The notes beneath the pieces are model-generated. The model worked only from the letters and a program-made list of their open reading frames with translations, searched no databases and was not told where the DNA came from. DNA of 64,000 nt from the NCBI GenBank assembly GCA_017471045.1, contig JAFUWZ010000051.1:23798-87797 (forward strand), written 5' to 3'. Below, piece by piece: positions 2,945 to 55,637 of the stretch. This stretch comes from Bacteroidales bacterium. GTDB lineage: Bacteria; Bacteroidota; Bacteroidia; Bacteroidales; UBA932. The stretch's first letter is position 1, and each line of letters starts with the position of its first letter. The position numbers and the translations under genes were made by a program.

Positions 2945-4576
2945 TCAAAAAGAAAGCTGGGCATCGGCATAGCGGGAAACCGCTTCCCGATGCGAAATAA
3001 ACAGGATTGTCTTCTCACCTTTGCATGCGGATGCGAGCCGGTCGAGCAGGATCTGCTCCGTCGCTGCATCCAGCGAAGAACTGGCCTCGTCCAGGATCAG
3101 GATACGGCCCGGCCGGAGCAAGGCACGGGCGATCGCTACACGCTGGGCCTGTCCTTCACTCAATCCGGCACCGACCTCGCTGCACAACGTGTCGAGACCG
3201 GCCGGAAGATCCTGCACGAAATCCGCTGCCGCGATATGCAGCGCTTCCCGCATCTGCTCGTCCGTGGCGGCAGCGTCCGCCAGCAGGAGATTCTCCCGGA
3301 TCGTACCGCTCATCAGGCTGTTGCCTTGCGGCACATAGGTGAAATTGCAGCGGGTCGCCACCGAAGACGGGACGCTCCGGCTGCTGTCATACAACTCGAT
3401 CCGCCCCTTCACCGGTGTAAGCAGAGCCATGACCAGGCGCACCAGCGTACTCTTGCCGGCCCCCGTATGACCGGTGATGACCGTAGTGGTGCCCGGCTTG
3501 AAATCGAAATCCAGACCGTCGATCACCGTTTTCCCGTCATCCGGATAGGCAAAGGAGAGCGAGTCCACCCGGACGCCAGGCGCCTCCGGGAAAGCATCGT
3601 CCGCCACCTCAGGCTCCAGCGGGAGCTCCTGCAGTTCCATCAGACGCTCGACCGAGGTCAGGGAATTGATGAATGCGGGGATATGCCGGCTCAGGTCGGC
3701 GATCGGCCGCTGGATCTGGCCGACCAGCTGGAGAAAAGCTGTCATCATGCCGAAAGTCACCGTGCCGCTCTTGATACCGAAAACGCCCCAGAGGAAAGCA
3801 GCGGCATAGCCGGACATGAAGCCCATGCTCATGAATGTACGTGCGACAGCATTGTAGTTCAAGCGTTTGACGGCATTGTTGCGGATATCATCCTGCAAAT
3901 GCTCCATCCGGTCTGTGACCCGGTCCACGCCGAAAAGCGTGAGAACGAGCACCCGGCGCTGCAGATTTTCCTGGATATGCCCCTGGACTTCGCTGTCCTT
4001 CTTCCGGATTTTCTCGGTCAGCTCCCGCAGCAGGCGAAAAAACATCTTGCTGCCCAGGACTGCGACCACCATCAGGAGCAGCAGCAGCCAGACCAGCTTC
4101 GGGGCAAGGTGCAGCAGGAAGATCGAAGCGGCAATCAGCTGGCACAGCGTCACGACCGCATCCGGCAAACGCGAACAGATCAGATCGACCACGACCCGCA
4201 GGTCCTCCTGCATACGGTTGATCGCATCGGCGCTGTGGAAAGTCTCCCGTCCGTTCCAGGAGCTGCGGATGATATGGGCGAACAGGTCCCGACGCATCTG
4301 CAGACGGGTTTTCACCTCCGTCAGTCCCTGCCAATAGTTGAATGCGACATTGGACGCCAGTTGAAGCGCCATCACACCGATCATCGTCCAGACATAAGGC
4401 CCGATGGGTACGGCATCGACACCGCTGGCGATATCGATCAGTTTCTTGCAGATCCATACGAACAACAGGGAGGCACCGATCCGGACCAGGCCGATCAGCA
4501 CAGTGACGATGATCCGTCCCGACAAGGGGCGGACCATCGCACCTAATCCCTTCATGCACGTACGGAAATCTTTCAT
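2945..4576 (-). CDS. ABC exporter, fused permease plus ATPase, no C39 peptidase domain
   Basis: N-terminal hydrophobic helices; Walker A GHTGAGKST, Q-loop VPQG, signature LSEGQAQR, Walker B ILILDE, ISHR. Start reassigned to MKDFRTC at 4576, 5 nt after the PqqD stop. Confidence 0.92.
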   Translation of the reverse strand: MKDFRTCMKGLGAMVRPLSGRIIVTVLIGLVRIGASLLFVWICKKLIDIASGVDAVPIGPYVWTMIGVMALQLASNVAFNYWQGLTEVKTRLQMRRDLFAHIIRSSWNGRETFHSADAINRMQEDLRVVVDLICSRLPDAVVTLCQLIAASIFLLHLAPKLVWLLLLLMVVAVLGSKMFFRLLRELTEKIRKKDSEVQGHIQENLQRRVLVLTLFGVDRVTDRMEHLQDDIRNNAVKRLNYNAVARTFMSMGFMSGYAAAFLWGVFGIKSGTVTFGMMTAFLQLVGQIQRPIADLSRHIPAFINSLTSVERLMELQELPLEPEVADDAFPEAPGVRVDSLSFAYPDDGKTVIDGLDFDFKPGTTTVITGHTGAGKSTLVRLVMALLTPVKGRIELYDSSRSVPSSVATRCNFTYVPQGNSLMSGTIRENLLLADAAATDEQMREALHIAAADFVQDLPAGLDTLCSEVGAGLSEGQAQRVAIARALLRPGRILILDEASSSLDAATEQILLDRLASACKGEKTILFISHREAVSRYADAQLSF

Positions 4577-4581
4577 AAGGG

Positions 4582-4851
4582 CTATTCGGCGACAACGCCC
4601 GCTTCCACCCACGCCTGGGCCAGCGAGGCCGCATCATGGGCAGCGACTTCTTCCGTCACCTCGTAGCGGTCCAGCAGCAGTTCCGTCAAGGTCTCAACCG
4701 TAAAATCTTTGCCCTCGACAGCCTCCCACAGGTAGGCGGCGCTGTCATTGAGCGACACCATCTTGTTGAAATTGACCTGGGCGAGCCCTTCGCCAACGAC
4801 GATGTGCTCCTTGCCCAATTTACGCAATCTGAAACCTTCAATAATCTTCAT
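4582..4851 (-). CDS. PqqD family protein / RiPP recognition element (RRE), 89 aa
   Basis: MKIIEGFRLRKLGKEHIVV...SLNDSAAYLWEAVEGKDFTVETLTELLLDRYEVTEEVAAHDAASLAQAW fits the PqqD pattern (LNxxxxxxW, YxV, Dxxxxxxxx). ATG at 4851. Confidence 0.88.
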   Translation of the reverse strand: MKIIEGFRLRKLGKEHIVVGEGLAQVNFNKMVSLNDSAAYLWEAVEGKDFTVETLTELLLDRYEVTEEVAAHDAASLAQAWVEAGVVAE

Positions 4852-4855
4852 ATCC

Positions 4856-5281
4856 TTAAGCAATTTTTCTGTAAACCCATAAAACATACTTGCGAACCGG
4901 CAGAAGTTTTCTCCAGAAAGTGCCTTTCGTCACCTTCTTGACGGAGCCGTTGGGCCGGATGATCTCCTGGACAGTACCCAGGATGTCGGACAGCGAGCAG
5001 GACTCCGTCCCGACCAGATTGCCATCTCCCATCAGCGTGACCCTGCCCCCTTCGATGATGATGATGCGATGGAGCACATACCGTTTGGGAGCGATCCGCG
5101 CCAGGACGATATCGCCGACCTCCACCGCGTCGAACTTCTTCAAGTTGACACTGTCTTTCTCGCCCCGGATGAAAGGGAGCATGCTGTTTCCCTTGGTCAT
5201 CAGGACGACTTCGATCCCCCGTGAGAGCAGATCATGGGCCTCTTCCAAAAGGATTTCGTTGGGTACTACCATCTTGTTCAT
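4856..5281 (-). CDS. S24/S26 family (signal-peptidase-like) serine peptidase
   Basis: KGNSMLPF catalytic Ser box, GDIVL, YVLHRII (His at the general-base position), GDGN. Confidence 0.85.
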   Translation of the reverse strand: MNKMVVPNEILLEEAHDLLSRGIEVVLMTKGNSMLPFIRGEKDSVNLKKFDAVEVGDIVLARIAPKRYVLHRIIIIEGGRVTLMGDGNLVGTESCSLSDILGTVQEIIRPNGSVKKVTKGTFWRKLLPVRKYVLWVYRKIA

Positions 5282-6156
5282 CTTACTGCTTCATGACATA
5301 CTTCAGCCGCTTCGTGATCCGGACGGCAGTCCAGGACGAAACACGGCACGTCCAGAACCACCTTTTCCAACGTGGCGTGCAGGCCGTCCGCGATCTTCCG
5401 GTCGGATTTCAGCCCCGAACAGGATGAATACACGGAAGCATAAGCCTCTACGACCGACAGGCGGGTCGCATGGTTCTCCGGGGCCTGGCGGATCCGCACG
5501 ATTGCGCCCACGGGAGCGTCCAAGTTGCGGTAACAGGGTGTTTTACCGCTCCAGGGAGTCCCGTAAACGCGCGCCGAACCGTCAGGGTCCAGGCGGATGA
5601 CCGGATTGTCGTCGTTGAGCAGTTCCGTGCCCGGGAAGGTCTCCAGCCACTGGCGGCTGTGCGTGCTCTTCCCCGTACCGCTCTTGCCCAGGAACATATA
5701 GCCTTTCCCGTCCTTAAGCACCACCGAGGAATGCATCTCGAGCGTGTCCATCCCGGAGGTGCGGAATGCGTAGAGGATCATCAGCGCATTGTTGAGGGCA
5801 AACAAGGCATTCCGGCGCTCGGGTACGATGCAGAAAACAGCCCGGGAGAAATCCGCCAAGGACTCCATCACGCAGCAGACCGGAGCCTTGGCCAACGGCG
5901 CCATCTCGAAACGCCATCCCTCCCCGACCCGGTACAATTCGATCCGGGACTGTCCTTCTTCGTGCGGAGCTTCGGTATAGACCGGCTCTTTTTCGCGCGC
6001 AGGCAGATCCTGCACAAGCGTCAGGGAAAACACCCCGTCCTCCTCTGAAATCGGGACCTCGAACGGGTCATACTGCCCCATCATGTTCCACAGAGGGCAA
6101 CCCTCGGGCATCTCCACACTGAACCGGTGTCCGGCTACGACGAACGACTTTTTCAT
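5278..6156 (-). CDS. HPr-kinase-related P-loop kinase
   Basis: MHSSVVLKDGKGYMFLGKSGTGKSTH and LLNDD motifs match the HprK/PEPCK-like kinase fold. ATG at 6156; the TTG at 6165 lies inside the promoter motif. Confidence 0.78.
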   Translation of the reverse strand: MKKSFVVAGHRFSVEMPEGCPLWNMMGQYDPFEVPISEEDGVFSLTLVQDLPAREKEPVYTEAPHEEGQSRIELYRVGEGWRFEMAPLAKAPVCCVMESLADFSRAVFCIVPERRNALFALNNALMILYAFRTSGMDTLEMHSSVVLKDGKGYMFLGKSGTGKSTHSRQWLETFPGTELLNDDNPVIRLDPDGSARVYGTPWSGKTPCYRNLDAPVGAIVRIRQAPENHATRLSVVEAYASVYSSCSGLKSDRKIADGLHATLEKVVLDVPCFVLDCRPDHEAAEVCHEAVR

Positions 6157-6162
6157 AGACAA

Positions 6163-6170
6163 CAAATATA
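6163..6170 (-). promoter_or_regulatory. Bacteroidota -7 promoter element TATATTTG for the kinase-peptidase-PqqD-ABC-addBA operon
   Basis: Matches TAnnTTTG and lies 6 nt upstream of ATG 6156. Confidence 0.7.
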
Positions 6171-6194
6171 ACTATTATTAGTGAATTCGCGAAC

Positions 6195-15281: not shown

Positions 15282-15312
15282 TTTGATAATTCTGAAAAAT
15301 ACTCTATTTTTG
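15282..15312 (+). promoter_or_regulatory. Canonical -33/-7 promoter for the HU-bS22-RNase G operon
   Basis: TTTG (15282-15285), N19, TATTTTTG (15305-15312). Confidence 0.75.
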
Positions 15313-28037: not shown

Positions 28038-28096
28038 CAAAGATAGTTTTTTTGCCGCAAATCGCAAAAATATTTCGCAACTATTCCTTATTTTTG
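28038..28096. promoter_or_regulatory. Divergent -7 elements: TATCTTTG (minus, 28038-28045, rplU) and TATTTTTG (plus, 28089-28096, ATPase)
   Basis: TAnnTTTG matches in an AT-rich divergent gap. Confidence 0.7.
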
Positions 28097-43842: not shown

Positions 43843-43914
43843 GCGGCCGTCTGAATATACAATCGGCCGTCTGTCCCTGTCATAGGTCCTTTGGTTGAAA
43901 AACGTGCTCCGGCA

Positions 43915-43945
43915 TTTGAATTTTTCGAAAGGATTAGTAAATTTG
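43915..43945 (+). promoter_or_regulatory. Canonical -33/-7 promoter for the second operon
   Basis: TTTG (43915-43918), N19, TAAATTTG (43938-43945), followed by an AT-rich leader. Confidence 0.75.
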
Positions 43946-44022
43946 TTCCCCCAAGGAATGAATATTTATGTGTATATACAGAATAATTATTCTAATCCTC
44001 TTACAATCAAAAATTTAAAACT

Positions 44023-44202
44023 ATGCAGAAAACTACGGTCTCAAAACGGTCTTATTCCCGTCCCCTTTGTGAGAGTCTGGCTTTCACAACCGAAACTGCC
44101 CTTCTTTCGACCAGCGCCGGTGTAGGCGACATGCCCGTCCACCCGGCTTCCATTGGAGACAGCCAGAATGATTTATTTTCCAGCAGTGAGTTTATTTTTT
44201 AA
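44023..44202 (+). CDS. 59-aa peptide with YxxP leader-like motif (candidate RRE-dependent precursor)
   Basis: Translated by hand: MQKTTVSKRSYSRPLCESLAFTTETALLSTSAGVGDMPVHPASIGDSQNDLFSSSEFIF*. A-rich initiation context (AAATTTAAAACT-ATG); 11 nt before the next gene. Confidence 0.8.
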   Translation: MQKTTVSKRSYSRPLCESLAFTTETALLSTSAGVGDMPVHPASIGDSQNDLFSSSEFIF

Positions 44203-44213
44203 CAAAGGTTGCT

Positions 44214-47200
44214 ATGAAAAAAACTTCTTCACTTTCCGCCCTTGCGGCCGCGATCCTGTTCTGCGCGACTGGATGTATCAACGAACCTTTGACCCTGGAG
44301 CAGCCTGCCAGCCTCCAAGAAACTGCTGAAGAAGGGGGAGACTGGATCCTGATCAACGCCAAATTCCCGGACCAAGGCCCCGAGACCCGTCTTTCATACA
44401 GTTACAACGAAGAGGGAACCGTCCTCCATTCCACCTGGTCCTCCGGTGACGTACTGTACCGGGACGGTGCCAGCAGCAGCAAGTTCACCTATGTCGAGCC
44501 GACGGGCGAGAACACGGCTACTTTCGCGACGACCGCCGCCCTGGCCGCCAACACCAAGTATTATTTCACCGTCAACTACGCCAATTCTTCAAACGGCTTC
44601 AAGGCCAACCGCAACAGTTATTACCAATATGCCATCCAGACCGGCAACATCAACGATATCACCTGGTTCGACTACCTGTTTGCAACGGCCCAGACCAACG
44701 CCGACAAACAGCTCCCCGATGTGATCGAGTTCAAGCGCATGAACTCATTCGTCGAGGTCAATGGCATCAACTTCGGAGAAGGCGTCAACCTGGAAATCTG
44801 GAAAGTCCAGCTGGTCGGGCCCTGCTTCGGTACGCAGTGCCAGATCGGATTGACCAAGACCCGCAACGACTTCGGAGAAGCGAATGACGTCTATATCAAC
44901 AACGGACTCTCCGCCCAGCCGGGGTACTATTCGGAAGAGCCGTTCAACCATCCCAACTTCAAGGTCGAAAACGGCGTCCTGAAAGACACCGTCCTCATCT
45001 CTTTCTTCCCGACCCTGACCGCCCAGTCCGGCCAGCCCTGCAAACTCGCCTTCTACGACACGGAAAACAACATCTACACCCTCGAATGGGAGTCCTCGAG
45101 CGCCTATACGAGCGGTAATGTCTACCGCGTCTCCGGCCGGGCCGAGAAACCCATCGTCACCAATATCGTGTTTGAAGATCCCGTCGTGAAGTCTCTCTGC
45201 ACCAATTCGTATTATGGAGACTGGGACCTCAACAAGGACGGAGAGCTCTCTGATTTGGAAGCATCCCTGGTCTCTACCATCGAGTACAAATTCGGCGGCT
45301 ACAACGGCTCCGAAGGATCAAACATCACCAAGTTCAATGAACTCGAATACTTCACCGGCCTCAAGGAGATCCCTGCCCAGGCCTTCCTGAATTGCCGCAG
45401 CCTGGAAGAGATCACGATCCCCGAAAGTGTAGACCGGATCCGGGCAGACGCATTCAACGGATGCTCCAGCTTGAAATCCATCGTCGTTCCCGAAAATGTG
45501 AAAGAAATCTGGGGCGGAGCCTTCAAGTCCTGCACATCCCTGACCAGCGTCACCCTTCCGGACAATGCTGATATCGCCCCCGTCAACGCCAGCGGAACCC
45601 AGGCCGGCCAGACTTTCCAAGGTTGCACGGCCCTGGAGAGCATCACCCTGCCCAGTAACCTGACCGCCATCGGCGCCCAGACGTTCCAGGAGTCCGGTCT
45701 CTTCGCGATCCACCTGCCCAGCGGGTTGAAAACCATAGGAGCCAATGCCTTCTACAAGTGCTCCCACCTGAACATCATCACGTTGCCCGCTTCGCTGGAG
45801 ACCGTCAGCGCCGGTGCATTCGGAGAGTGTTCCAACATCATTTATGCCGAGATCGAACCCGGATCTACCTTCTCGATCTCAGACGACTATTCGATGCTCA
45901 TCCAGAACGGCAATACCGCCGTCGCCAGCTTCGGCAACAAGACGGTCCTCCGCTTCCCCGAACAGATCACGGCGATCGCCGCTTCCTTCGCCAACGGTTC
46001 TTCCAAACTGGAAGAAGTCCATATCCCCGGCATCAAGTCCATCGGAACTCAGGCTTTCGCCAACTGCCTCAATCTGAAGAAAGCCGTATATGCCGATGAC
46101 GCCGTGACCGGAGCCAGCACCTTCCTCAATGACGTAAGTCTGACGGAAGTCATCCTTCCCAAGAACGCAACCGAACTGCAAGCCAGCCTCTTCCAGGGCT
46201 GCTCCGCCCTCGAAAGCATCACCCTGCCCGCCGGAGTGACCAAGTTCAACACCAATGTCTTCCGCGACTGCAAGTCGCTTAAGACTGTCATCCTGCCCGA
46301 AGGGATCACGGAAGTAGCCGGAAATCTGTTCTATGGCTGTTCCTCGCTCGAGCACATTGACATCCCTTCCACCGTCGTGACCCTCAAGGGCAACTGCTTC
46401 CAGAAATGCACCGGCCTCAAGGAGATTGTGCTCCCCGCAGGCCTGACCCGCATCGAGGGAAGCGTTTTTGACGGCTGCAGCGGTATCCAGGAAATTAAGA
46501 TCCCCGACGGTGTGACCTTTATCGGGCAATACGCATTCCGGGGCATGACCGGCTTGAGCGAAATCCACATCCCGGATGGCGTCACCAACCTCCAGGCCGG
46601 ATTGATTGCCAACTGCACCGGGATCACCGAATTCACGTTCCCCGCCAAGGTTACGACCCTCGGAGCCGGCGTCTTCTCCGGGACGGGCATCACTTCCCTG
46701 ACCTTGCCCGCCGGGATCAAGACCCTGCCCAACAATGCTTTCCAAAACACGAAAATCCAGACCGTCGCACTGCCGGCGAATCTGACGCAGATCCCGGGCA
46801 ACTGCTTCGACGGCTGCACCAACCTCAAGGAGCTGTCCATCCCCGCAACCGTTACGACGATCGGCATGAATGCCTTCCAGAACTGCACGGCCCTGACTTC
46901 CCTGACCCTCCCGGCCGGCGTCAAGACACTCAACAACAACTCCTTCAAGGGATCCGGCCTGACTTCCATCACGCTGCCGGACGCCATAGCGCAGATTCCG
47001 AACAACTGCTTCCAGGGCTGCGCCGCACTCAAGATCGTCGTCTTCCCGGCCAACCTGACGACCATCGCCATGTACGCCTTCCAGAACTGCACGGCCCTTG
47101 AGTCCGTATCGCTTCCGGAGAAACTTACGACGATCAACATGTATGCCTTTGACGGCTGCTCCGGCTTGAAGGATGTCTCCATCTCCACCGGAATCACGAT

Positions 47201-47423
47201 GATCAACATGTACGCTTTCTCCAAGTGCCCGTCCCTGGATTGGGTCCAAATCGAGCGCACGACGCCCCCGACCGTCATGAGCAACAGTTTCCAACTGAAT
47301 GCGGACCAGGATCCCTATCCGATCTATGTCCCGGACAGCGCCGTCGAAGCCTACAAGAGCACCGGAAACTGGGCAAGCGCCTACGCTTCCCGCATCTATT
47401 CAATCAGCAGCAAAGGCGAATAG
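44214..47423 (+). CDS. Surface lipoprotein: fimbrillin-like N-terminus plus about 26 BspA-type leucine-rich repeats (LRR_5)
   Basis: Lipobox ATGC; ETRLSY, WSSGD, GNVY; N-cap FEDPVVK..WDLNKDGELS..NELEYFTGL; repeated AF.GC..L..I.LP; C-cap TTPP..IYVPDSAVEAYK. Confidence 0.9.
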   Translation: MKKTSSLSALAAAILFCATGCINEPLTLEQPASLQETAEEGGDWILINAKFPDQGPETRLSYSYNEEGTVLHSTWSSGDVLYRDGASSSKFTYVEPTGENTATFATTAALAANTKYYFTVNYANSSNGFKANRNSYYQYAIQTGNINDITWFDYLFATAQTNADKQLPDVIEFKRMNSFVEVNGINFGEGVNLEIWKVQLVGPCFGTQCQIGLTKTRNDFGEANDVYINNGLSAQPGYYSEEPFNHPNFKVENGVLKDTVLISFFPTLTAQSGQPCKLAFYDTENNIYTLEWESSSAYTSGNVYRVSGRAEKPIVTNIVFEDPVVKSLCTNSYYGDWDLNKDGELSDLEASLVSTIEYKFGGYNGSEGSNITKFNELEYFTGLKEIPAQAFLNCRSLEEITIPESVDRIRADAFNGCSSLKSIVVPENVKEIWGGAFKSCTSLTSVTLPDNADIAPVNASGTQAGQTFQGCTALESITLPSNLTAIGAQTFQESGLFAIHLPSGLKTIGANAFYKCSHLNIITLPASLETVSAGAFGECSNIIYAEIEPGSTFSISDDYSMLIQNGNTAVASFGNKTVLRFPEQITAIAASFANGSSKLEEVHIPGIKSIGTQAFANCLNLKKAVYADDAVTGASTFLNDVSLTEVILPKNATELQASLFQGCSALESITLPAGVTKFNTNVFRDCKSLKTVILPEGITEVAGNLFYGCSSLEHIDIPSTVVTLKGNCFQKCTGLKEIVLPAGLTRIEGSVFDGCSGIQEIKIPDGVTFIGQYAFRGMTGLSEIHIPDGVTNLQAGLIANCTGITEFTFPAKVTTLGAGVFSGTGITSLTLPAGIKTLPNNAFQNTKIQTVALPANLTQIPGNCFDGCTNLKELSIPATVTTIGMNAFQNCTALTSLTLPAGVKTLNNNSFKGSGLTSITLPDAIAQIPNNCFQGCAALKIVVFPANLTTIAMYAFQNCTALESVSLPEKLTTINMYAFDGCSGLKDVSISTGITMINMYAFSKCPSLDWVQIERTTPPTVMSNSFQLNADQDPYPIYVPDSAVEAYKSTGNWASAYASRIYSISSKGE

Positions 47424-47429
47424 TTGAAA

Positions 47430-50400
47430 ATGGACAGATTGCAACCCGTCAAACGGTCATTTGTCTTTCGCCTCCTGCTCATCTTCTCCCTGGTTCTGCC
47501 AGGCCTGACCCTGTCAGCCCAATCTGTCCGCAAGGTGACCGGAAAGGTCACCTATGCGGAGGACGGGCAGCCCATCATCGGAGCGGCTGTATTGGTAGAT
47601 GGGCATGAGCAGCTCGTGACAGTGACGGACTTGGACGGGAACTTCACCCTGGAAGGCGTTCCCGAGCAGGCAAAGACACTGACCATAAGCTACCTGGGTG
47701 TCAAGGACAAGACCCTCCCCATCTCCGATAAGCCGATGGACATCCGGATGGAGAGCGAAGCGCAGCAACTGGAAGGAGTCATCGTGACCGGCATGCAGAA
47801 AGTAGACCGGAGACTCTTCACCGGCGCAGCCACGAAAGTGGAGGCTTCGGAAGCGAAACTGGACGGCATGGCAGACGTCAGCCGCTCCCTGGAGGGGCGG
47901 GTCGCCGGTGTCTCCGTCCAGAACGTTTCCGGCACTTTCGGAACGGCTCCTAAAATCCGTGTCCGCGGTGCCACCTCCATCTATGGATCCTCCAAGCCGC
48001 TCTGGGTCGTGGACGGCGTCATCATGGAAGACGTCGTGGAAGTCAGCGCGGACCAGCTCTCATCGGGCGATGCCAACACGCTGATTTCCTCAGCCATTGC
48101 AGGGCTCAACTCCGATGATATCGAGTCTTTCGACATCCTCAAGGACGGATCCGCCACCTCGATCTACGGTGCCCGGGCCATGGCCGGCGTCATTGTCGTC
48201 ACCACCAAGCGGGGCAAGGCCGGATCGGCCCAAGTCGGCTACACAGGAGAATACTCCGTACGCCTGAAACCCTCCTACCGCACATTCAACATCCTTTCTT
48301 CCCAGGACCAGATCGCCATCTACCAGGAATTGGATCAGAAAGGCTATCTGAACTACGCGGAGACATCCAATGCCGCCGATTCCGGTGTCTATGGCAAAAT
48401 GTACCAGCTGCTGACCCAATACGATCCGGCCAACAAGACTTTTGCCCTGGACAATACCCCGCAGGCCAAAGCGGCGTATCTGCGCGCGGCCGAATACCGC
48501 AACACCGACTGGTTCGACCGCCTCTTCCGCCACTCCCTGCAGCACAATCATTCCGTCAGCGTATCCGGCGGTACCGAGAAGGCGACCTACTACACCTCCC
48601 TGTCCGTGATGGACGACCCGGGGTGGACCTTGCAAAGCCGGGTCAACCGCTATACGGCCAACATGAACACGTCCGTCAAGATCTCCCCCGCGCTGACCCT
48701 CACCGTGATCAGCAATGCCGCCTACCGGCGCCAACGGGCACCCGGTACACTTTCGGGCAACATCGATGCCGTATCCGGCGAGGTCACCCGCTCGTTCGAC
48801 ATTAACCCCTACTCCTTTGCCCTCAACACGTCCCGAACCTTGGATCCTGACGAGTTCTACACCCGTAATTTCGCTCCATTCAATATCTTCCATGAACTGG
48901 ACAACAACTACATAGACCTCAGCGTCGTTGATCTCAGGTTCCAGGGAGAATTGAAGTATAAACCGACCGCTCACCTAGAACTGAGCGGCCTGGGAGCCAT
49001 CAAACACTCCTCCACCTCGCAGGCGCATCACATCCTGGACGATTCCAACCAGGCGCAGGCGTACCGGGCCATGGGGACGTCCACGATCCGCAGCATCAAC
49101 AGCTACTTGTATACGGACCCGGACAATCCGTATGCCCTGCCGGTATCGGTCCTGCCCAACGGCGGTATCTATGAGCGGACCAACAACGCGATGTACGGTT
49201 ACGACTTGCGCGCTACGGCCACCTACAGCAACACCTTCCACCGGGACCATATCATCAATCTTTATGGCGGTTCTGAAGTCAACCTGGTAGACCGGACCAG
49301 CGACTGGTTCCGGGGATGGGGTCTCCAATACTCAATGGGCGAAGTGGCCAACTATGCATATCAGGTCTTCAAGAAGAGTTCGGAGCAGAATACGCAATAT
49401 TTCACGCTAAACAACCGCTACGACCGCATCGTCGCCTTCTTCGCCAACGCGACCTACTCCTATCAAGGCCGCTACACCCTCAACGGGACCACCCGCTACG
49501 AAGGGACGAACCGCCTGGGAAAGGCCCGTTCCGCCCGGTGGCTTCCGACCTGGAATGTCGCAGCCTCCTGGAACATCCACGAAGAAGAATTCATGCGGGG
49601 TCTCTATCCTACCCTGTCCCACCTCAGCCTGAAGAGTTCCTATTCCCTGACGGCGGACCGGGGTCCGGCCAACGTGACCAATTCGTACGTCGTCATCTCC
49701 AGCGACACGCCCTGGCGTCCCTACGCCGTTGACCGGGAGAGCGAACTCTACATCGCCGATGTCGCCAACAACGACCTGACCTACGAGAAAAAGCACGAAC
49801 TGAACATCGGGCTGGAGGCCGGCCTGCTGGATAACCGGATCAACCTGGCCCTCGACTGGTACAAGCGCGACAACTTCGACCTGATCGGCATTGTCCACAC
49901 CAAAGGCCTCGGCGGACAGATTGCCAAATTCGGCAACATTGCCGCCATGCGTTCCGACGGATTTGAGGTCAGCCTTTCGACCAACAACCTCCGCAGCGAA
50001 CGGTTCAGCTGGACGACAAATCTGATCTACTCCCACTCCCACAACGTCGTGACCCGGCTCAACACGACCAAACGGGTCATTGACCTGGTCCAAGGCGGCG
50101 GTTTCGCCCAGGAAGGATACCCGGTCCGAAGCGTATTCTCCATCCCGTTCATGGGACTCAACCAGGAAGGGCTCCCCACGTTCAAAGACCAGGACGGGAA
50201 TGTTTCCGTCACCGGCGTATATTTCCAGGAGAGCGATCCGGAAGCGTTGAAGTTCCTCGAATACTCGGGTAGCGCCGATCCTACGGACGTGGGATCCCTC
50301 GGCAACATTTTTACATGGAACGGGCTCCGGCTCAACGTCTTCATCACTTATTCCCTGGGCAATGTCATCCGGCTGGACCCGGTCTTCCGGAGTAGCTACA

Positions 50401-50795
50401 ACGATTTGGACGCCATGCCCAAGGAGTTCCTGGACCGTTGGGTCCAGGCCGGAGACGAGGAAAAGACTGATGTTCCGGCCATCGCTTCGCGCATCCAGAA
50501 CAGGCGGAACACCAACCTTTCCATCGCATACAACGCCTACAACTACTCGACCGCCCGTATCGCCAGCGGCAACTTCGTGCGGATGAAGGAGTTGTCCCTC
50601 TCGTATGATCTCCCGAAGGACTGGGTCCATACAATCGGCCTGTCCACCGCTTCCCTCAAGTTGCAAGGGACCAACCTCTTCCTGATCTATGCCGATCCCA
50701 AACTGAACGGCCAGGATCCCGAGTTCTTCAATACCGGCGGTGTCGCCGTACCCGTCCCGAAACAATTCACATTGACCCTCAGGCTTGGATTGTGA
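47430..50795 (+). CDS. susC: SusC/RagA TonB-dependent transporter
   Basis: VTGKVT, VIVTGMQ, PLWVVDG, ILKDGSATSIYGARAMAGVIVVTTK, terminal LGL. Start at ATG 47430 or TTG 47424. Confidence 0.97.
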   Translation: MDRLQPVKRSFVFRLLLIFSLVLPGLTLSAQSVRKVTGKVTYAEDGQPIIGAAVLVDGHEQLVTVTDLDGNFTLEGVPEQAKTLTISYLGVKDKTLPISDKPMDIRMESEAQQLEGVIVTGMQKVDRRLFTGAATKVEASEAKLDGMADVSRSLEGRVAGVSVQNVSGTFGTAPKIRVRGATSIYGSSKPLWVVDGVIMEDVVEVSADQLSSGDANTLISSAIAGLNSDDIESFDILKDGSATSIYGARAMAGVIVVTTKRGKAGSAQVGYTGEYSVRLKPSYRTFNILSSQDQIAIYQELDQKGYLNYAETSNAADSGVYGKMYQLLTQYDPANKTFALDNTPQAKAAYLRAAEYRNTDWFDRLFRHSLQHNHSVSVSGGTEKATYYTSLSVMDDPGWTLQSRVNRYTANMNTSVKISPALTLTVISNAAYRRQRAPGTLSGNIDAVSGEVTRSFDINPYSFALNTSRTLDPDEFYTRNFAPFNIFHELDNNYIDLSVVDLRFQGELKYKPTAHLELSGLGAIKHSSTSQAHHILDDSNQAQAYRAMGTSTIRSINSYLYTDPDNPYALPVSVLPNGGIYERTNNAMYGYDLRATATYSNTFHRDHIINLYGGSEVNLVDRTSDWFRGWGLQYSMGEVANYAYQVFKKSSEQNTQYFTLNNRYDRIVAFFANATYSYQGRYTLNGTTRYEGTNRLGKARSARWLPTWNVAASWNIHEEEFMRGLYPTLSHLSLKSSYSLTADRGPANVTNSYVVISSDTPWRPYAVDRESELYIADVANNDLTYEKKHELNIGLEAGLLDNRINLALDWYKRDNFDLIGIVHTKGLGGQIAKFGNIAAMRSDGFEVSLSTNNLRSERFSWTTNLIYSHSHNVVTRLNTTKRVIDLVQGGGFAQEGYPVRSVFSIPFMGLNQEGLPTFKDQDGNVSVTGVYFQESDPEALKFLEYSGSADPTDVGSLGNIFTWNGLRLNVFITYSLGNVIRLDPVFRSSYNDLDAMPKEFLDRWVQAGDEEKTDVPAIASRIQNRRNTNLSIAYNAYNYSTARIASGNFVRMKELSLSYDLPKDWVHTIGLSTASLKLQGTNLFLIYADPKLNGQDPEFFNTGGVAVPVPKQFTLTLRLGL

Positions 50796-50796
50796 T

Positions 50797-52365
50797 ATGA
50801 AGAAACAACTGTTATCAGTTCTTACCCTCTCTGCGATCTTGTCCCTGGCGGTCTCGTGCGACCGTTTCCTGGACAAGATCCCGGACAACCGTACCGAGAT
50901 CGATACGGCGGAAAAGATGCAGAACCTGCTGGTGTCTGCCTACCCCGCGACGGACTATATGCTGCTCTGCGAGTTCATGTCAGACAATGTCGACGACTAC
51001 GGCCCGAACAACCCCTACACGGACCGGTTCATCGACCAGGTCGTCTATTGGGACGATGTGACGGAGAGCGACAACGAGGGGCCGGAGAATCTCTGGGGCA
51101 ACTCGTACGCCGCCATCGCCGCTGCCAACGAAGTGCTCGCCGGGCTGGAAAACATCGGCGGCGCCTCCACCCGGACCCTGGAACAAATCCGCGCAGAGGC
51201 CCTGCTCTGCCGGGCCTACAGCCATTTTGTCCTGGTCAACGTTTTCTGCAAGGCCTACAATCCCGAGACATCCTCTACGGACCTGGGCATCCCTTACATC
51301 GAAGTCCCCGAAACGACCCTGGATACAGATGCCGGACGCGAGACGGTCGCACAGGTTTATGACAAAATCGACCGCGACATCCAGGAAGCCCTGCCGCTCC
51401 AAGGTGATAGCTACTACTCCATCCCGAAATTCCATTTCAACCAGAAGGCCGCCTACGCCTTTGCCGCGCGCTTCTACCTGTACTGGCAGAAATGGGACAA
51501 AGCCTTGCTCTATGCGGACCGCTGCCTGGGCACGGCCCCTGAGACCCTGCTCCGGGACTGGGCGGAGATGAAAGAGATGACGCAGACCTATGCGCCCATC
51601 GTACAGCATTTTATCCAGTCTTCGCTCAACTGCAACTTGCTGCTGATGACGGCCTATTCCAAGATGGGCCTGGCCTTCGGTCCCTACTTCGCCTACTCCC
51701 GTTACGCCCATGGCAATTATCTGGCAACGACGGAAGACGGGATGGCGACCCAGATCTGGGGCAACGCCAGTTTCTATCAGGGGATGAAAGTCTATCGGGC
51801 GACCAACCTGGACAAGACGGTGTTCTGGAAACTCCCCTACCTCTTCGAGTATACGGATGCGGTGGCCGGGATCGGTTATTACAGAACGGTCTATCCGGCA
51901 TTCTGGGCGGATGAGACCCTGCTCGTCCGGGCGGAAGCCCGGGCGATGCTGGATGATTTCGACGGGTGCTGCGCCGACCTGACCCTCTGGATGCAGAACA
52001 TTGTGGATACCGACCTGGTACTGCGCCCGATGGCCGTCCGCAATTTCTTCAACACTTCCTACTGGAGCTGGGACGCTCCCACGCTCAAAAAGCATCTGCA
52101 CCCCACTTTTGACATCGGGACGGAAAACTCCCAGAAGGAAGCGCTCATCCAGTGCGTCCTCCTGTTCCGGCGGATCGAGACGCTCGGCCAGGGCCTGCGC
52201 TGGTTCGACATCAAGCGCTACGGGATCGATCTCGAGCGCCGGGTCATGAATGCCAAGGGAGAACCGGACCACGTAGCCCGGAGCCTGAACCACGACGACG
52301 AACGGACCGCTGTCCAGATCCCCCTGAAGGTCCGTGCCGCCGGCCTGAAGCCCAACCCCAGATAA
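50797..52365 (+). CDS. susD: SusD/RagB lipoprotein
   Basis: Lipobox AVSCD..LD..PDNR; RAYSHFVLVNVF, LGIPY, RIETLGQGLRWFDIKR. Confidence 0.95.
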   Translation: MKKQLLSVLTLSAILSLAVSCDRFLDKIPDNRTEIDTAEKMQNLLVSAYPATDYMLLCEFMSDNVDDYGPNNPYTDRFIDQVVYWDDVTESDNEGPENLWGNSYAAIAAANEVLAGLENIGGASTRTLEQIRAEALLCRAYSHFVLVNVFCKAYNPETSSTDLGIPYIEVPETTLDTDAGRETVAQVYDKIDRDIQEALPLQGDSYYSIPKFHFNQKAAYAFAARFYLYWQKWDKALLYADRCLGTAPETLLRDWAEMKEMTQTYAPIVQHFIQSSLNCNLLLMTAYSKMGLAFGPYFAYSRYAHGNYLATTEDGMATQIWGNASFYQGMKVYRATNLDKTVFWKLPYLFEYTDAVAGIGYYRTVYPAFWADETLLVRAEARAMLDDFDGCCADLTLWMQNIVDTDLVLRPMAVRNFFNTSYWSWDAPTLKKHLHPTFDIGTENSQKEALIQCVLLFRRIETLGQGLRWFDIKRYGIDLERRVMNAKGEPDHVARSLNHDDERTAVQIPLKVRAAGLKPNPR

Positions 52366-52379
52366 AAGATGAGTCGCAT

Positions 52380-53276
52380 ATGAGAAGAAAATATTTGATA
52401 CTGAGTCTTCTTTCATTGATCCTGGCCGCCGTGACCGCCTGCCAGGATGAGCCCCTTTCTCCGGAAAGCGTGATCACGCTGGACCGGGTTTACGAAAACG
52501 ACTTTGACAAGTGGCTCCGTGCCAACTATGTCGACCCCTACAATATCGAGTTCTGCTACAAGTACAACCTCAATGAGTCGGACATGAACTACTTCACGGT
52601 TCCTTCCGACCTGAACAGTTCCATCATGATGGCCCACCTGGTGAAGTATCTGTGCATCGAATCCTACGATGAAGTTGCCGGGGTCGATTTCACCCGGGCC
52701 TATTTCCCGAAACTGTTCTTCCTGATCGGAGAATTCGAGTACCGCAACAACGGAACGATGATCCTCGGCACGGCGGAAGGCGGCAAGAAAATCATGCTGT
52801 CCGGGATCAACTATCTCCCGCGTTTCATCCGGGATGCCGAGTACCTGAACATCCTGTACCTCCAGACCATCCACCATGAATTCACCCATATCCTGAACCA
52901 GACCAAAGATTACCCGGCGGACTACAAACAGATCACCGGCAACGGGTATGTCGCCGACCAGTGGAGCACGGCCCCCTTCGACACGACCTATCTGAAGAAT
53001 GGTTTCATTTCATCTTACGCCCAATATGCCGACTACGAAGACTTTGCCGAGATGCTGTCTTCGTTCGTCGTCCACGATGCCTCGTGGTGGGACGCCCAAC
53101 TGCAAGCGGCCGGGGCCGAAGGAGCCAAGCGGATCGGAGCCAAACTCGACATGGTCCGGACTTACATGTCCGAATCGTGGGGGATCGATATCTACGCCTT
53201 GCGGGAGACCATCCAGCGAAGGCAGCAGGATGTGACCGGCGGCCGGCTGGATTTGTTGAATCTCAGCCTAAATTGA
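52380..53276 (+). CDS. Substrate-import-associated zinc metallopeptidase lipoprotein (HExxH)
   Basis: Lipobox VTACQ; YNIEFCYK, FPKLFFLIG, GTAEGG, HHEFTHILNQ, GFISSYA, EDFAE. Confidence 0.88.
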   Translation: MRRKYLILSLLSLILAAVTACQDEPLSPESVITLDRVYENDFDKWLRANYVDPYNIEFCYKYNLNESDMNYFTVPSDLNSSIMMAHLVKYLCIESYDEVAGVDFTRAYFPKLFFLIGEFEYRNNGTMILGTAEGGKKIMLSGINYLPRFIRDAEYLNILYLQTIHHEFTHILNQTKDYPADYKQITGNGYVADQWSTAPFDTTYLKNGFISSYAQYADYEDFAEMLSSFVVHDASWWDAQLQAAGAEGAKRIGAKLDMVRTYMSESWGIDIYALRETIQRRQQDVTGGRLDLLNLSLN

Positions 53277-53283
53277 TGAACAG

Positions 53284-54570
53284 ATGAGAAAAACGATACA
53301 ACACTGCCTGCTGGTCCTCCTTTCCCTGGCACTTCTTGCATCCTGCCGGAAAGAATCCGGAAGAGTCTTCCCGGAAAGTGCCTCAAAGCGGATCAGCAAC
53401 ACACTCGCCGAAGCGGAAGAGCTGCTGACGACAGCCTCCCATGGCTGGCATCTGGTCGAGTTCGCCGGAACTTCCGAGAAAGACTACGGCGGGATGAACT
53501 TCGCCGTTTCTTTCACGAAGACCGAGGTCACCGCTTATTATGAGCGGGACACGCTCAACGCCTATACCAGCCACTACAGCCTGGTCGCCGGAGACTGCGC
53601 CATGCTGTCTTTCGACAGCTACAACCCGCACCTCCACTTGTATTCCACTCCGTCCACCACAGCCTACGAAGCCAAAGGCGGAGACTTCCAGTTCGCCATC
53701 GTCAGCCTCTCCCCCCAAGAGATCATCCTGCGGGGGATCCGGACCGGCAAGATGGCCAGGATGTTCCCGCTGGACGAACCCTGCGGGTCCTTTATCCGCC
53801 GGATTGCCCAGGCCTCCGACAGTTTTATCGTAGCATTTATCGAGGGCACGCTGGGCGGGCGACCCATCTCGGGCTCATTCGACCTGAACAACCGCCAGCT
53901 GCACCTGACGGAAGAGGGCGCCGTCCGGGATATCCCCTATGTCACGACCTTGAGCGGCATCCGTTTCTACGAACCCCTCAAGATCGGACAGAGCGAGTTC
54001 GAGACCCTGGACTTCGATCCGGCTACCTTCTCTTTCTCCTCCAACGGAGAGATCCTCCCCGTCGTCGGGAGCCTCCCGGATGACTATGTGCCCTATGACG
54101 CCTACGAAGGAAACTACGTTTTCAACTACTGGAACGACTCCGCCCTCGCGCACGTCACCCTGACGCCGGGCATCCCCAACGAGACCTATATCCTCTCGGG
54201 CATCAGCCGGAAGTATTCCCTGACCCTGACTTATGACAAGGCCAGCGGAAGCCTGTCCCTGAACTCCCAAAAGATCGGAGACGACGGGACGCGGGCCATC
54301 TGGCTCTGCGCATGGGATGCCAATGCCGGCTACCTGTCCTGGAGCAAAGACGCCGGAATGCACACGGTCTGGAACCAGGACAGTGAGCACCCGGTCTACT
54401 CTTTCGTGTCCAACGAATATGACTTCTTGCCCAATGCCAACTCCTTCATCCTGTGGCTGATCGACGAGAACAATGCTTCCGCCGGCCAGTTTGAAGGGAA
54501 CGGCTGGGATCCGTACAACCGAAGCGTGCTCCCGTTCCTGGGCAATCTTACCCGAAAGGAAAATCCATGA
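53284..54570 (+). CDS. DUF4302-like lipoprotein
   Basis: Lipobox LASC; FPESASKR, HGW, YGG.NF, LSFDSYN..LH.YSTP, GDFQF. Confidence 0.8.
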   Translation: MRKTIQHCLLVLLSLALLASCRKESGRVFPESASKRISNTLAEAEELLTTASHGWHLVEFAGTSEKDYGGMNFAVSFTKTEVTAYYERDTLNAYTSHYSLVAGDCAMLSFDSYNPHLHLYSTPSTTAYEAKGGDFQFAIVSLSPQEIILRGIRTGKMARMFPLDEPCGSFIRRIAQASDSFIVAFIEGTLGGRPISGSFDLNNRQLHLTEEGAVRDIPYVTTLSGIRFYEPLKIGQSEFETLDFDPATFSFSSNGEILPVVGSLPDDYVPYDAYEGNYVFNYWNDSALAHVTLTPGIPNETYILSGISRKYSLTLTYDKASGSLSLNSQKIGDDGTRAIWLCAWDANAGYLSWSKDAGMHTVWNQDSEHPVYSFVSNEYDFLPNANSFILWLIDENNASAGQFEGNGWDPYNRSVLPFLGNLTRKENP

Positions 54571-55637
54571 TGAAACACCCGATTCTTGATCGTGCGGCCC
54601 GTATCCTGCTGATGACAGGACTCCTCCTTGCCGCCTGCACAAACCCCGTCCCGGAAAAAGAAGCGGACCCGCTTCTGATCCGTTCCTCCCAGTTAGAGTT
54701 CTCCGCATCCGGAGGATCCGGACATGTCACGCTGGAGACCGACGAAGCCCTGGCGGCAGAATCGGACAGGGAGTGGTGCAAGACCCGCGTTTCCGGATCC
54801 ACGATCCAGCTGGAAGTCGCTCCCTGCGGAGACCTGGAAAGCCGGAATGCCAATTTGCGGATTTCAACCGACAAGCAGACCCTCAGGGTCACCGTACGCC
54901 AGGCCGGCGCCTTCATCCACATGCCCGATTGCGACACGACCTTCCTGATCGGAGACGAGTCCGTTACCCTCTCGCTCCCGGGCACTTCGGACATCGGCAT
55001 GAGCGTGAGCGGCAATGTGGACTGGATCTCCGGGACCTTTGACGGTGAACTTCTCTCCTTCTCAGCCAGCGAGAATACCTCCGGACACATCCGGGAAGGC
55101 TATGCCATCTTCCAGGCCGGGAAAACCCGGGACTCGGTACGGATCATCCAGGGAGGCATCCGGGATGTCTGCAAGCGTTACATCCTTTCTGGTCAGGACA
55201 ATTCCGGGAAAGCGACACAGGCTCAAGTCGTCCTCAGCGAAGCTTCGGACAGAGACCTGCTCCTGACTTTTCCGGATCAAGGTTGGACCTTTACGGCCAC
55301 CTTCGACCCGGCCGACCTGAGCATCCACATCCCGAACATGCAATACGGGGGTACGACCCCGGTCGGTGCCGGGCGATATCATGTATTCCTCCACCAATAC
55401 CTGTCTGAGCAGCAGCTTTTCAATTCATCCGCAGGGGGGAGCATCAGTGCGAAATTCTCCTATGACGCCGCCCGGGATAGAACCATCGCCGCATTTTATG
55501 ATGACGGTTCCTGGCCCGGTTCGGTCCCGGACGGCATCATCGTGGTTGCCTATTCCCGCAGGGATGCCTCCGGCGCCCCGGCCGGATTGAAGAGATATCC
55601 GCTGATCCTCGGCAAGCTCCGGGCGGAGACCGAATGA
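54567..55637 (+). CDS. BACON domain-containing lipoprotein
   Basis: Lipobox LLAAC; F.ASGGS..V, WCKT, V.PC.D..SR.A, VDWI, NTSGHIR.G. Confidence 0.8.
   Translation: MMKHPILDRAARILLMTGLLLAACTNPVPEKEADPLLIRSSQLEFSASGGSGHVTLETDEALAAESDREWCKTRVSGSTIQLEVAPCGDLESRNANLRISTDKQTLRVTVRQAGAFIHMPDCDTTFLIGDESVTLSLPGTSDIGMSVSGNVDWISGTFDGELLSFSASENTSGHIREGYAIFQAGKTRDSVRIIQGGIRDVCKRYILSGQDNSGKATQAQVVLSEASDRDLLLTFPDQGWTFTATFDPADLSIHIPNMQYGGTTPVGAGRYHVFLHQYLSEQQLFNSSAGGSISAKFSYDAARDRTIAAFYDDGSWPGSVPDGIIVVAYSRRDASGAPAGLKRYPLILGKLRAETE

Follow-up and report, generated by a model that had tools for sequence, protein, structure and literature searches.

We analysed a 64,000-nucleotide stretch of contig JAFUWZ010000051.1 (the window), which comes from a bacterium of the Bacteroidales, and studied a small open reading frame (sORF) of 59 codons that lies directly 5' of a gene for a surface lipoprotein with leucine-rich repeats (LRR). 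Comparison with its homologues indicates that the frame is a real, conserved gene. Its peptide belongs, judging by shared sequence features, to a large unnamed family of the Bacteroidota, whose members have about 40-60 residues with a basic start, a Y-x-x-P motif, an h-[L/C]-x-x-S motif and an acidic tail. By analogy with the linear polyphosphorylated peptides (LPP), a class of RiPPs (peptides made by ribosomes and then modified post-translationally), we consider it rather probable that the frame is a precursor gene and that the peptides are scattered substrates of one cassette that would phosphorylate, trim and export them. Set against the literature searched, the novelty is a Bacteroidota variant whose numerous precursors are dispersed and each stand at the head of a gene for a surface lipoprotein.

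The 59-codon frame and its peptide family

The features around the frame, with the evidence for each, are as follows (LppA is the precursor of the LPP class).

43915..43945 (+), Bacteroidota-type promoter: -33 TTTG, 19-nt spacer, -7 element TAAATTTG
44023..44202 (+), YxxP micro-protein gene, probable LppA-like precursor peptide: 59 codons and stop; orthologues and family membership
44023..44115 (+), leader-like conserved half, residues 1-31: family alignments and spacing in the own-genome paralogues
44116..44199 (+), core-like tail, residues 32-59, AGVGDMPVHPASIGDSQNDLFSSSEFIF: net charge -4, Ser-rich, aromatic end
44203..44213 (+), 11-nt spacer CAAAGGTTGCT from the sORF stop to the lipoprotein start: weak Shine-Dalgarno-like AAAGG; orthologue spacers of 12-13 nt
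44214..47423 (+), surface lipoprotein of 1069 aa, its gene coupled to the sORF: LRR_5, E 4e-166

Translation of 44023-44202 (+) gave MQKTTVSKRSYSRPLCESLAFTTETALLSTSAGVGDMPVHPASIGDSQNDLFSSSEFIF and a stop, 59 aa in total; the TAA occupies 44200-44202 and the next ATG is at 44214, with 11 nt between them. An earlier reading made from the letters of the window (the sequence-only reading) had placed the frame behind a canonical promoter and 11 nt before the LRR lipoprotein, and our translation and coordinates were identical to it. The motif K..Y..P..E...E..LL..S that it described is present, and the core that can be generalised is narrower, Y-x-x-P ... h-[L/C]-x-x-S; its acidic, Ser-rich C-terminal half was also recovered. 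The leader half has a basic N-terminus followed by Y11-S-R-P14, C16-E17, F21, E24 and L27-L28-S-T-S31, with the conserved Ser at Tyr+20. In the tail, the segment GVGDMPV-[K/H]-PAS is invariant across the three orthologues (see below), and the last residues are SSSEFIF. Our translation of the peptide contains no signal sequence.

The promoter (TTTG-N19-TAAATTTG) is one of three full matches in the 64-kb window versus 0.16 expected from shuffles, and the transcript is predicted to start near 43950, approximately 70 nt 5' of the sORF. The start context of the frame is A-rich (A at -3, -6, -12 and -13) and lies at the 94th percentile of real starts, a level equalled by 6% of AT-rich control ATGs. 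A scan of the leader for terminators and sigma-70 sites revealed no terminator-like site and gave no sigma-70 information. Its RNA fold was insignificant (z = -0.75), no attenuator structure or stalling motif was identified in it, and an Rfam search of it returned no match. Another plus-strand frame overlaps the sORF in a different reading frame (43958-44125, 55 aa from ATG; 43895-44125, 76 aa from TTG); it is without family features and is probably due to chance, though it begins a few nucleotides past the predicted transcript start.

Composition and the simpler searches suggested that the sORF was not a gene. Dinucleotide shuffles of the leader produced an ATG frame of at least 59 aa in 2-8% of trials, the GC content at codon positions 1/2/3 was 0.47/0.50/0.50 in the sORF versus 0.63/0.42/0.76 in long genes, and the codon score of -0.13 was below 99% of real in-frame windows. 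Single-sequence peptide searches gave no convincing match in the own genome or in 60 relatives; the best match among the relatives, in G031, was rejected as spurious because it lies inside a 302-aa ORF on the opposite strand. Searching the DNA of 120 genomes of the genus with the sORF gave no match, a word-indexed search of 5.8 billion proteins returned same-strain copies only, and exact peptide patterns found only spurious matches in 185,579 species genomes and JGI metagenomes. We first concluded that the frame was a non-conserved chance or orphan ORF in the leader; however, exhaustive phmmer and profile searches overturned this conclusion.

The exhaustive phmmer search, which covered 1.84 billion representatives, returned two 58-aa orthologues, P0003 (E 1e-9) and P0004 (E 2e-9), which are 49% and 54% identical to the sORF peptide, respectively. 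Other matches from this program (P0005-P0007) were discarded as low-complexity matches to long repetitive proteins. P0004 is located 13 nt 5' of a 1049-aa LRR_5 protein on four metagenome contigs and is then followed by SusC, in a different upstream context (after rpsU), and P0003 is located 12 nt 5' of the same kind of lipoprotein start. The partner LRR proteins are 67% (P0004) and 62% identical to that of the window, and the N-terminus of SusC is 80% identical in the orthologous contig. In the nucleotide alignment, the region 5' of the ATG was barely alignable and gaps within the frame were of 3 nt. Differences were concentrated at third codon positions (36 of 58, versus 17-22 of 58 at the other two), with counts of 22/18/36 at positions 1/2/3, and the ratio of non-synonymous to synonymous substitutions (dN/dS, Nei-Gojobori) was 0.18-0.22 with synonymous sites near saturation. 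The kept frame, the 3-nt gaps, the bias toward third positions and the dN/dS of about 0.2 indicate a protein-coding gene under purifying selection; that is, the ORF is conserved, a point that the sequence-only reading had named as decisive.

Searching 401 genomes of the genus with a profile built from the three orthologues returned about thirty weak matches, nearly all of them to the N-terminal half and inside 40-80-aa frames. Twelve of these matches were read, and they showed a basic start, Y-x-x-P-x-C-E, an acidic/hydrophobic stretch, h-L-x-x-S and a tail rich in Gly, Pro, Asp and Glu that often ended in Trp or Phe; wherever the neighbouring gene was read, a lipoprotein gene stood directly 3' of the member. 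Profile A4 is a family alignment of 15 sequences, in which Y11 and P14 are the only invariant columns. It found matches in 99 of 121 genomes of the genus, up to 11 per genome and almost all in 40-80-aa frames. The sORF peptide is among the 15 sequences, and its own hmmsearch E-value of 1.2e-19 is thus that of a query forming part of the profile.

In the own genome, hmmsearch over 45,936 open frames identified 16 members of 41-59 aa. The other 15, none of which is in A4, share every family feature. The Y and P were present in all 16, the Tyr-to-Ser spacing was 19-21 in each, every tail was net acidic (-2 to -8), and 13 had an aromatic residue among the last six. The family consensus is YxxPxCExhxhxxExxh[L/C]xxS, with the Ser of the general core at Tyr+19 to +21. 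In 15/16 members, no more than 25 nt separate the stop from the next gene or the two overlap (junctions of 10-25 nt or overlap), and at least 13/16 of the next genes encode a protein of 508-1069 aa with a lipoprotein signal. The same pairing was observed in the genomes G133, G344, G100 and G503. Each member would share a transcript, and probably its translation, with a surface lipoprotein gene whose start is no more than about 25 nt from the member's stop. The sequence-only reading had noted that similar sORFs recur ahead of fimbrillin and LRR genes, and these counts agree with it. Meanwhile, the pattern it proposed for finding them, YxxPxxE-x(5,7)-ExxLLxxS, proved too specific, with the sORF as its sole match in 18,169 small frames, and plain YxxP, which occurs in 5% of random small frames, is uninformative alone.

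The family also accounts for the failure of the coding test. Mean GC content at third codon positions (GC3) was 0.61 for the 16 own-genome members (0.50 for that of the window) versus 0.76 for the genes of the genome; therefore, composition-based gene finders and the codon test under-score members. Codon statistics and ORF-length shuffles were accordingly abandoned as a coding test for this family, for which they are misleading.

Two side observations concern the own-genome members. A strong AGGAGG was seen at two junctions (C73:58676 and C69:15370) and AAAGG at that of the window, and most others had none; Shine-Dalgarno sequences are generally rare in Bacteroidota. In addition, the members at C10:58102-58236 (+) and C10:64019-64153 (-) have identical tails (TVGLEDYNKPDGGWNWGN) and diverged leaders, and stand ahead of lipoproteins with near-identical N-termini, the two units lying in opposite orientation about 6 kb apart. 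Their sequences suggest a recent inverted duplication of the peptide-lipoprotein unit.

The kinase-peptidase-PqqD-exporter cassette and its link to the peptides

The LPP class was described in Bacillota by Popov et al. (Nat Commun 2026; PMC13381572) and consists of an SpI-like peptidase (LppS), a discrete RiPP recognition element (RRE; LppB), an HprK-like kinase (LppK), an NTP-transferase (LppN), an MsbA-like pump (LppD) and the precursor (LppA). The precursors have 35-200 aa with an N-terminal YxxPxVLxHQxIxFETxxS and variable C-termini; binding by the RRE needs Tyr-16 and Pro-13, the leader is cut after Thr-1, and Ser+3 is polyphosphorylated (PMC13381572). Putative counterparts of four of the five enzyme and transport genes of this class form one overlapping operon in the window.

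5278..6165 (-), HprK-like P-loop kinase, putative LppK counterpart and first gene of the cassette: likely start ATG 6156
4856..5281 (-), soluble S24/S26-type peptidase of 141 aa, putative LppS counterpart: Peptidase_S24, 8.7e-5
4582..4887 (-), stand-alone PqqD-type RRE, LppB counterpart: PF05402, 1.5e-14, above cut-off
2945..4612 (-), MsbA-like ATP-binding cassette (ABC) exporter, a half-transporter and LppD counterpart: ABC_membrane 2.7e-31, ABC_tran 1.9e-25, MsbA 8e-64

This composition is as the sequence-only reading had given it, with no room for a local precursor. The matches of the kinase were weak (ScmC 5e-6, HprK_rel_A 0.005, PEPCK_ATP in the P-loop region 0.005) and all lay below the curated cut-offs; the kinase of the G503 cluster described below had the same match pattern. 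For the peptidase, the best NCBIfam match was TIGR02228 (archaeal signal peptidase I, 2e-4), and this and the Peptidase_S24 match were likewise below cut-off. Its gene adjoins that of the RRE, and its position and size fit an SpI-like leader peptidase. The exporter has 555 aa and no C39 peptidase domain.

The homologues of the PqqD protein have 88-93 aa; therefore, its translation probably begins at residue 13, a Met. Its AlphaFold model (pLDDT 78) matched best to TbiB1 (5v1v, TM 0.70/0.79) and FusB1 (6jx3) in the PDB, with overall TM of 0.68-0.79, in a fold library with a release cut-off of 8 April 2026 that is without LppB (9X8Z). Both structures were solved with bound YxxP leaders, and the model thus gives the recognition protein a fold of the lasso/LPP type. 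Six PqqD homologues share an invariant Asn and an invariant Asp, whose positions appear similar to those of Asn33 and Asp70, reported as leader-binding (PMC13381572). Sequence searches of the PDB with the PqqD protein and with the family profile were uninformative.

PqqD, the S26 peptidase and a kinase of this type each occur once in the own genome. An NTP_transf_5/PF14907-like gene is present elsewhere, at C10:19407-20438 (-) (tblastn 6.5e-16); it is divergent to, and about 70 nt from, the family member at C10:20511-20645 (+), which precedes a lipoprotein of about 800 aa. The closest relative, G141, has no precursor beside its cassette either. A rubrerythrin gene is inserted there between the cassette kinase and an alanine racemase gene (G141:C17, 6075-6623), indicating that the upstream boundary of the cassette is variable. 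In the window, a -7-like element, TATATTTG, at 6156-6175 (-) ends about 9 nt before the kinase ATG at 6156; hence, the cassette mRNA may be leaderless or nearly so.

We compared the presence of PqqD with that of the A4 family over the same 121 genomes of the genus. Counting genomes as independent, both were present in 87, PqqD only in 9, peptides only in 12 and neither in 13 (odds ratio 10.5, Fisher P 1e-5). Among the 62 genomes that are at least 90% complete, the numbers were 46, 6, 2 and 8, respectively (odds ratio 31, P 3e-5). The PqqD scores of the six high-quality genomes with PqqD only were all weak (E no better than 1e-17), and another RRE type may be present in these genomes. An independent test at the level of the order used 150 high-quality genomes from 142 genera. 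S26 peptidase was found in 11/150 (7%) and the peptide family in 5, from five families; all five peptide-positive genomes were also S26-positive (hypergeometric P 8e-7). The sequence-only reading had asked whether such peptides are common in genomes lacking the cassette, and these distributions, in both the genus and the order, do not refute its proposal.

Gene neighbourhoods pointed in the same direction. In G503, from another family of the order, two pairs of a 47-aa YxxP peptide and a 674-aa Mfa-like lipoprotein are located directly 5' of a full cassette on the same strand (HprK-like kinase, S26-like peptidase, PqqD, NTP_transf_5 and ABC exporter), with the two precursors 0.2-4.9 kb upstream of the kinase. 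In G100, from the same genus, PqqD and NTP_transf_5 come next after a 52-aa member and its 738-aa LRR lipoprotein. A second PqqD and NTP_transf_5 pair of this genome (G100:C2:80000-88000) lies beside an NusG/UpxY-like gene and a Bac_transf sugar transferase, which places it inside a capsule-type locus and recalls the capsule-locus setting reported for Bacillota LPP clusters (PMC13381572). The proposal that the peptides are dispersed substrates of the cassette is supported by this comparative genomics; co-occurrence together with the G503 and G100 neighbourhoods makes a substrate in trans the best reading.

Comparison with known systems, the proposed pathway and its rivals

The system resembles LPP in its stand-alone PqqD-type RRE, MsbA-like exporter without C39 domain and absence of a cyclase, probably also in its putative HprK-like kinase and soluble S26/SpI-like peptidase, and in its short precursors with an N-terminal YxxP leader, a Ser about 18-20 residues past the Tyr and a variable C-terminus. 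Correspondence with LppA is limited to YxxPx[V/C] and the distal Ser; since the leader is otherwise unlike the LppA consensus, with a spacing of 20 and no FET, we filed the system as an LPP-like variant and not as a strict member. It further differs in having about 16 dispersed precursors, whereas Bacillota clusters contain 1-3, in the coupling of each precursor to a surface lipoprotein gene, in the host phylum, and in being known from genes alone. The NTP-transferase is outside the cassette here and within the clusters of G503 and G100; the precursor is outside the cluster here and inside it in G503. The sequence-only reading had called the peptide system undescribed. This no longer holds for the enzyme set and the YxxP...S precursor, which were published in 2026 (PMC13381572), but the dispersal and the coupling to lipoprotein genes are new; the paper makes no mention of Bacteroidota, lipoproteins or in-trans precursors (PMC13381572).

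Lasso peptide clusters (paeninodin/pseudomycoidin; A, B1 RRE, B2, C cyclase, HprK-like kinase, NTP-transferase and ABC) also have a YxxP/WxxP leader read by a discrete PqqD-like RRE, and the RRE here is structurally closest to the lasso B1 proteins. They further contain a Ser-phosphorylating HprK-like kinase, an NTP_transf_5 partner and an ABC exporter. However, no cyclase (Asn-synthetase-like C) or B2 cysteine protease was found in or beside the cassette, the genome not having been searched exhaustively for a cyclase; a serine peptidase stands in place of B2, and the tail has no recognisable macrolactam-forming layout. The lasso leader motif YxxP(xL), to which the sequence-only reading had appealed, is present as YxxP but not in the strict YxxPxL form because the sequence here is YSRPLC (Y-S-R-P-L-C). 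With PqqA-PqqD, the system shares a small peptide bound by a PqqD-fold chaperone, and the solution structure of PqqD (5sxy) was sixth among the fold matches; in contrast, there is no PqqE radical-SAM enzyme, no PqqB/C and no Glu...Tyr crosslink motif in the peptide, and the NCBIfam PqqD equivalog scores were far below cut-offs.

By analogy with LPP, the PqqD-type protein (4582-4887) would bind the Y11-x-x-P14 leader and present the peptide to two enzymes. The HprK-like kinase would phosphorylate the conserved Ser, which is Ser31 in the family register with Ser29/Thr30 as neighbours. The S26-type peptidase would remove a leader of about 28 residues, cutting approximately three residues before the conserved Ser, near L28/S29. 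The MsbA-like exporter would then carry the acidic core (about 30 residues, ...GVGDMPVHPAS...SSSEFIF) from the cytoplasm to the outside; a single cassette would handle the whole set of roughly 16 precursors dispersed in the genome.

Several findings weigh against this pathway. The co-occurrence statistics in the genus are uncorrected for shared ancestry, and they include the 12 genomes with peptides and no PqqD match (10 of them less than 90% complete) and the 9 with a PqqD match and no peptide match. The codon usage of the sORF is atypical (GC3 0.50), and its orthologue group is rare, with three clusters among 5.8 billion proteins and no further member in the exact-pattern scan of 185,579 species genomes or in a profile search of 400 genomes of the genus. 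The kinase and the peptidase match their families only below curated cut-offs. The cassette genes have no precursor candidate among or next to them, 38 kb separate the sORF from them, and the NTP-transferase (PF14907) is absent from the cassette at 2945-6165. The leader, YSRPLCESLAFTTETALLSTS, lacks VLxHQ and FET, and its Tyr-to-Ser distance is 20, compared with 18 in LppA. Finally, a RiPP pathway as such does not explain the tight one-to-one pairing with lipoprotein genes.

This unexplained pairing keeps alive a reading that is independent of the cassette, and it also supports the view of an exported partner considered in the next section. In the cassette-independent reading, which is possible but which we think unlikely, the peptide is translated and serves the downstream gene directly as a coupled leader cistron or as a cytoplasmic partner of the lipoprotein, and is never handled by the cassette. 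It would set translation of the lipoprotein through the 11-nt junction or accompany the nascent lipoprotein, and YxxP would have another role. SecM-secA and TnaC-tnaA are examples of coupled leader cistrons and regulatory leader peptides, and the likeness is a short ORF directly 5' of a gene, on the same transcript, with a short spacer of conserved length. The junctions described above favour this reading (15/16 members end within 25 nt of the next start or overlap it, at least 13 of these genes being large lipoprotein genes, and the orthologues keep a 12-13-nt spacer), as do the AGGAGG or AAAGG at some junctions, unusual for the phylum, the absence of a signal sequence, and the absence of any cassette gene near the sORF in its own genome. 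However, it leaves unexplained the phyletic link to the S26/PqqD cassette, the colinear gene order of G503 and G100, and a leader-plus-core layout in which the Ser is conserved at a set distance from YxxP and the acidic tails vary. Purifying selection acts here on the entire peptide, with a dN/dS near 0.2 that pure regulatory leader peptides rarely maintain along their full length, and the peptide is one of a multi-copy family and tracks a maturation cassette. The role as a coupled cistron and the role as a precursor are not mutually exclusive.

A further reading, which we consider improbable, makes the peptide a RiPP-type precursor that a different or extra pathway matures, with other enzymes or no phosphorylation, while the kinase cassette has other substrates. 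PqqD and NTP_transf_5 pairs, for example, may perform nucleotidylation or glycosylation. The G100 pair has only these two genes with no kinase or peptidase adjacent, the NTP_transf_5-like gene of the own genome adjoins another family member, and even the published LPP system assigns no role to LppN. This pathway would nevertheless have to be reconciled with an own genome that has one PqqD, one S26 peptidase and one kinase of the type, with the G503 cluster that joins all five enzymes to the peptides, and with an association at the order level that is with the S26 peptidase itself. That the sORF is an open frame arisen by chance in the untranslated 5' leader of the LRR-SusCD operon, in keeping with the shuffles, GC3, codon score, overlapping 55-aa frame and empty word-based and genus-level single-sequence searches, is so improbable that we count it as already refuted, because the orthologues keep frame, length and position under purifying selection and the own genome has 15 paralogues of the same architecture.

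The downstream operon and the meaning of the family

The 1069-aa lipoprotein has a lipoprotein signal, MKKTSSLSALAAAILFCATGC, and seven LRR_5 (BspA-type) stretches after a non-LRR N-terminal part of about 350 aa; its N-terminal 330 aa match no Pfam domain. The operon continues after the sORF and lipoprotein genes over 47430..55637 (+), with SusC, SusD and the other genes, all assigned by domain search, on the same strand.

47430-50795 (+), SusC-like TonB receptor
50785-52365 (+), SusD-like protein
within 52152-53276 (+), Peptidase_Mx1
53284-54570 (+), DUF4302/DUF4987 protein
54567-55637 (+), BACON protein

The SusC-like ORF opens at TTG 47424, and ATG 47430, the start called in the metagenome record, is the likelier start. 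The Peptidase_Mx1 ORF from GTG 52152 overlaps SusD by about 210 nt; therefore, its real start is probably further downstream. The other two full TTTG-N(17-23)-TAnnTTTG promoter matches of the window, at 15282-15312 (+) and 28038-28068 (-), each have several hundred nucleotides before the next long ORF (at 15762 on the plus and 27266 on the minus strand), a distance that may hold long leaders or uncalled small genes.

The nearest SusD orthologues in two sampled genomes of the genus, G099 and G025, are 63-66% identical, and the LRR gene adjoins SusCD in them but is divergent. No such sORF was found ahead of these nearest LRR homologues. In the window and in the metagenome orthologues, by comparison, sORF, LRR and SusC are all co-directional. 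From this contrast, the sORF and the LRR gene appear to travel together as a unit.

This pairing can be joined to the precursor reading in a tentative way. We think it unlikely, though worth stating, that the acidic peptide, once processed and phosphorylated, serves the lipoprotein encoded behind it as a dedicated partner and is not a free antibiotic or signal. Each of the approximately 16 lipoproteins (BspA-type LRR, Mfa/fimbrillin-like and others) would then be supplied with an exported peptide of its own, produced in fixed proportion by the shared mRNA, and would need it for folding, surface export, assembly or ligand binding; as one possibility, the aromatic C-terminal strand would fill the groove of a pilin-like N-terminal domain.

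Gut and rumen Bacteroidota rely on adhesins, pilus-like proteins, SusCD partners and other surface lipoproteins, whose assembly and regulation are only partly known. The family described here is missed by gene callers and by word-based searches and looks non-coding by codon statistics; therefore, annotations of Bacteroidota genomes omit a whole gene family. If the precursor reading is true, a RiPP class described in 2026 in Bacillota extends to a second phylum, and the system provides an example of a pathway with many precursors that are all encoded in trans. It would also raise the testable question of what part phosphorylated peptides play in the display of surface proteins. If the peptides are in addition partners of their lipoproteins, RiPP machinery would be part of surface-protein biogenesis in gut Bacteroidota.

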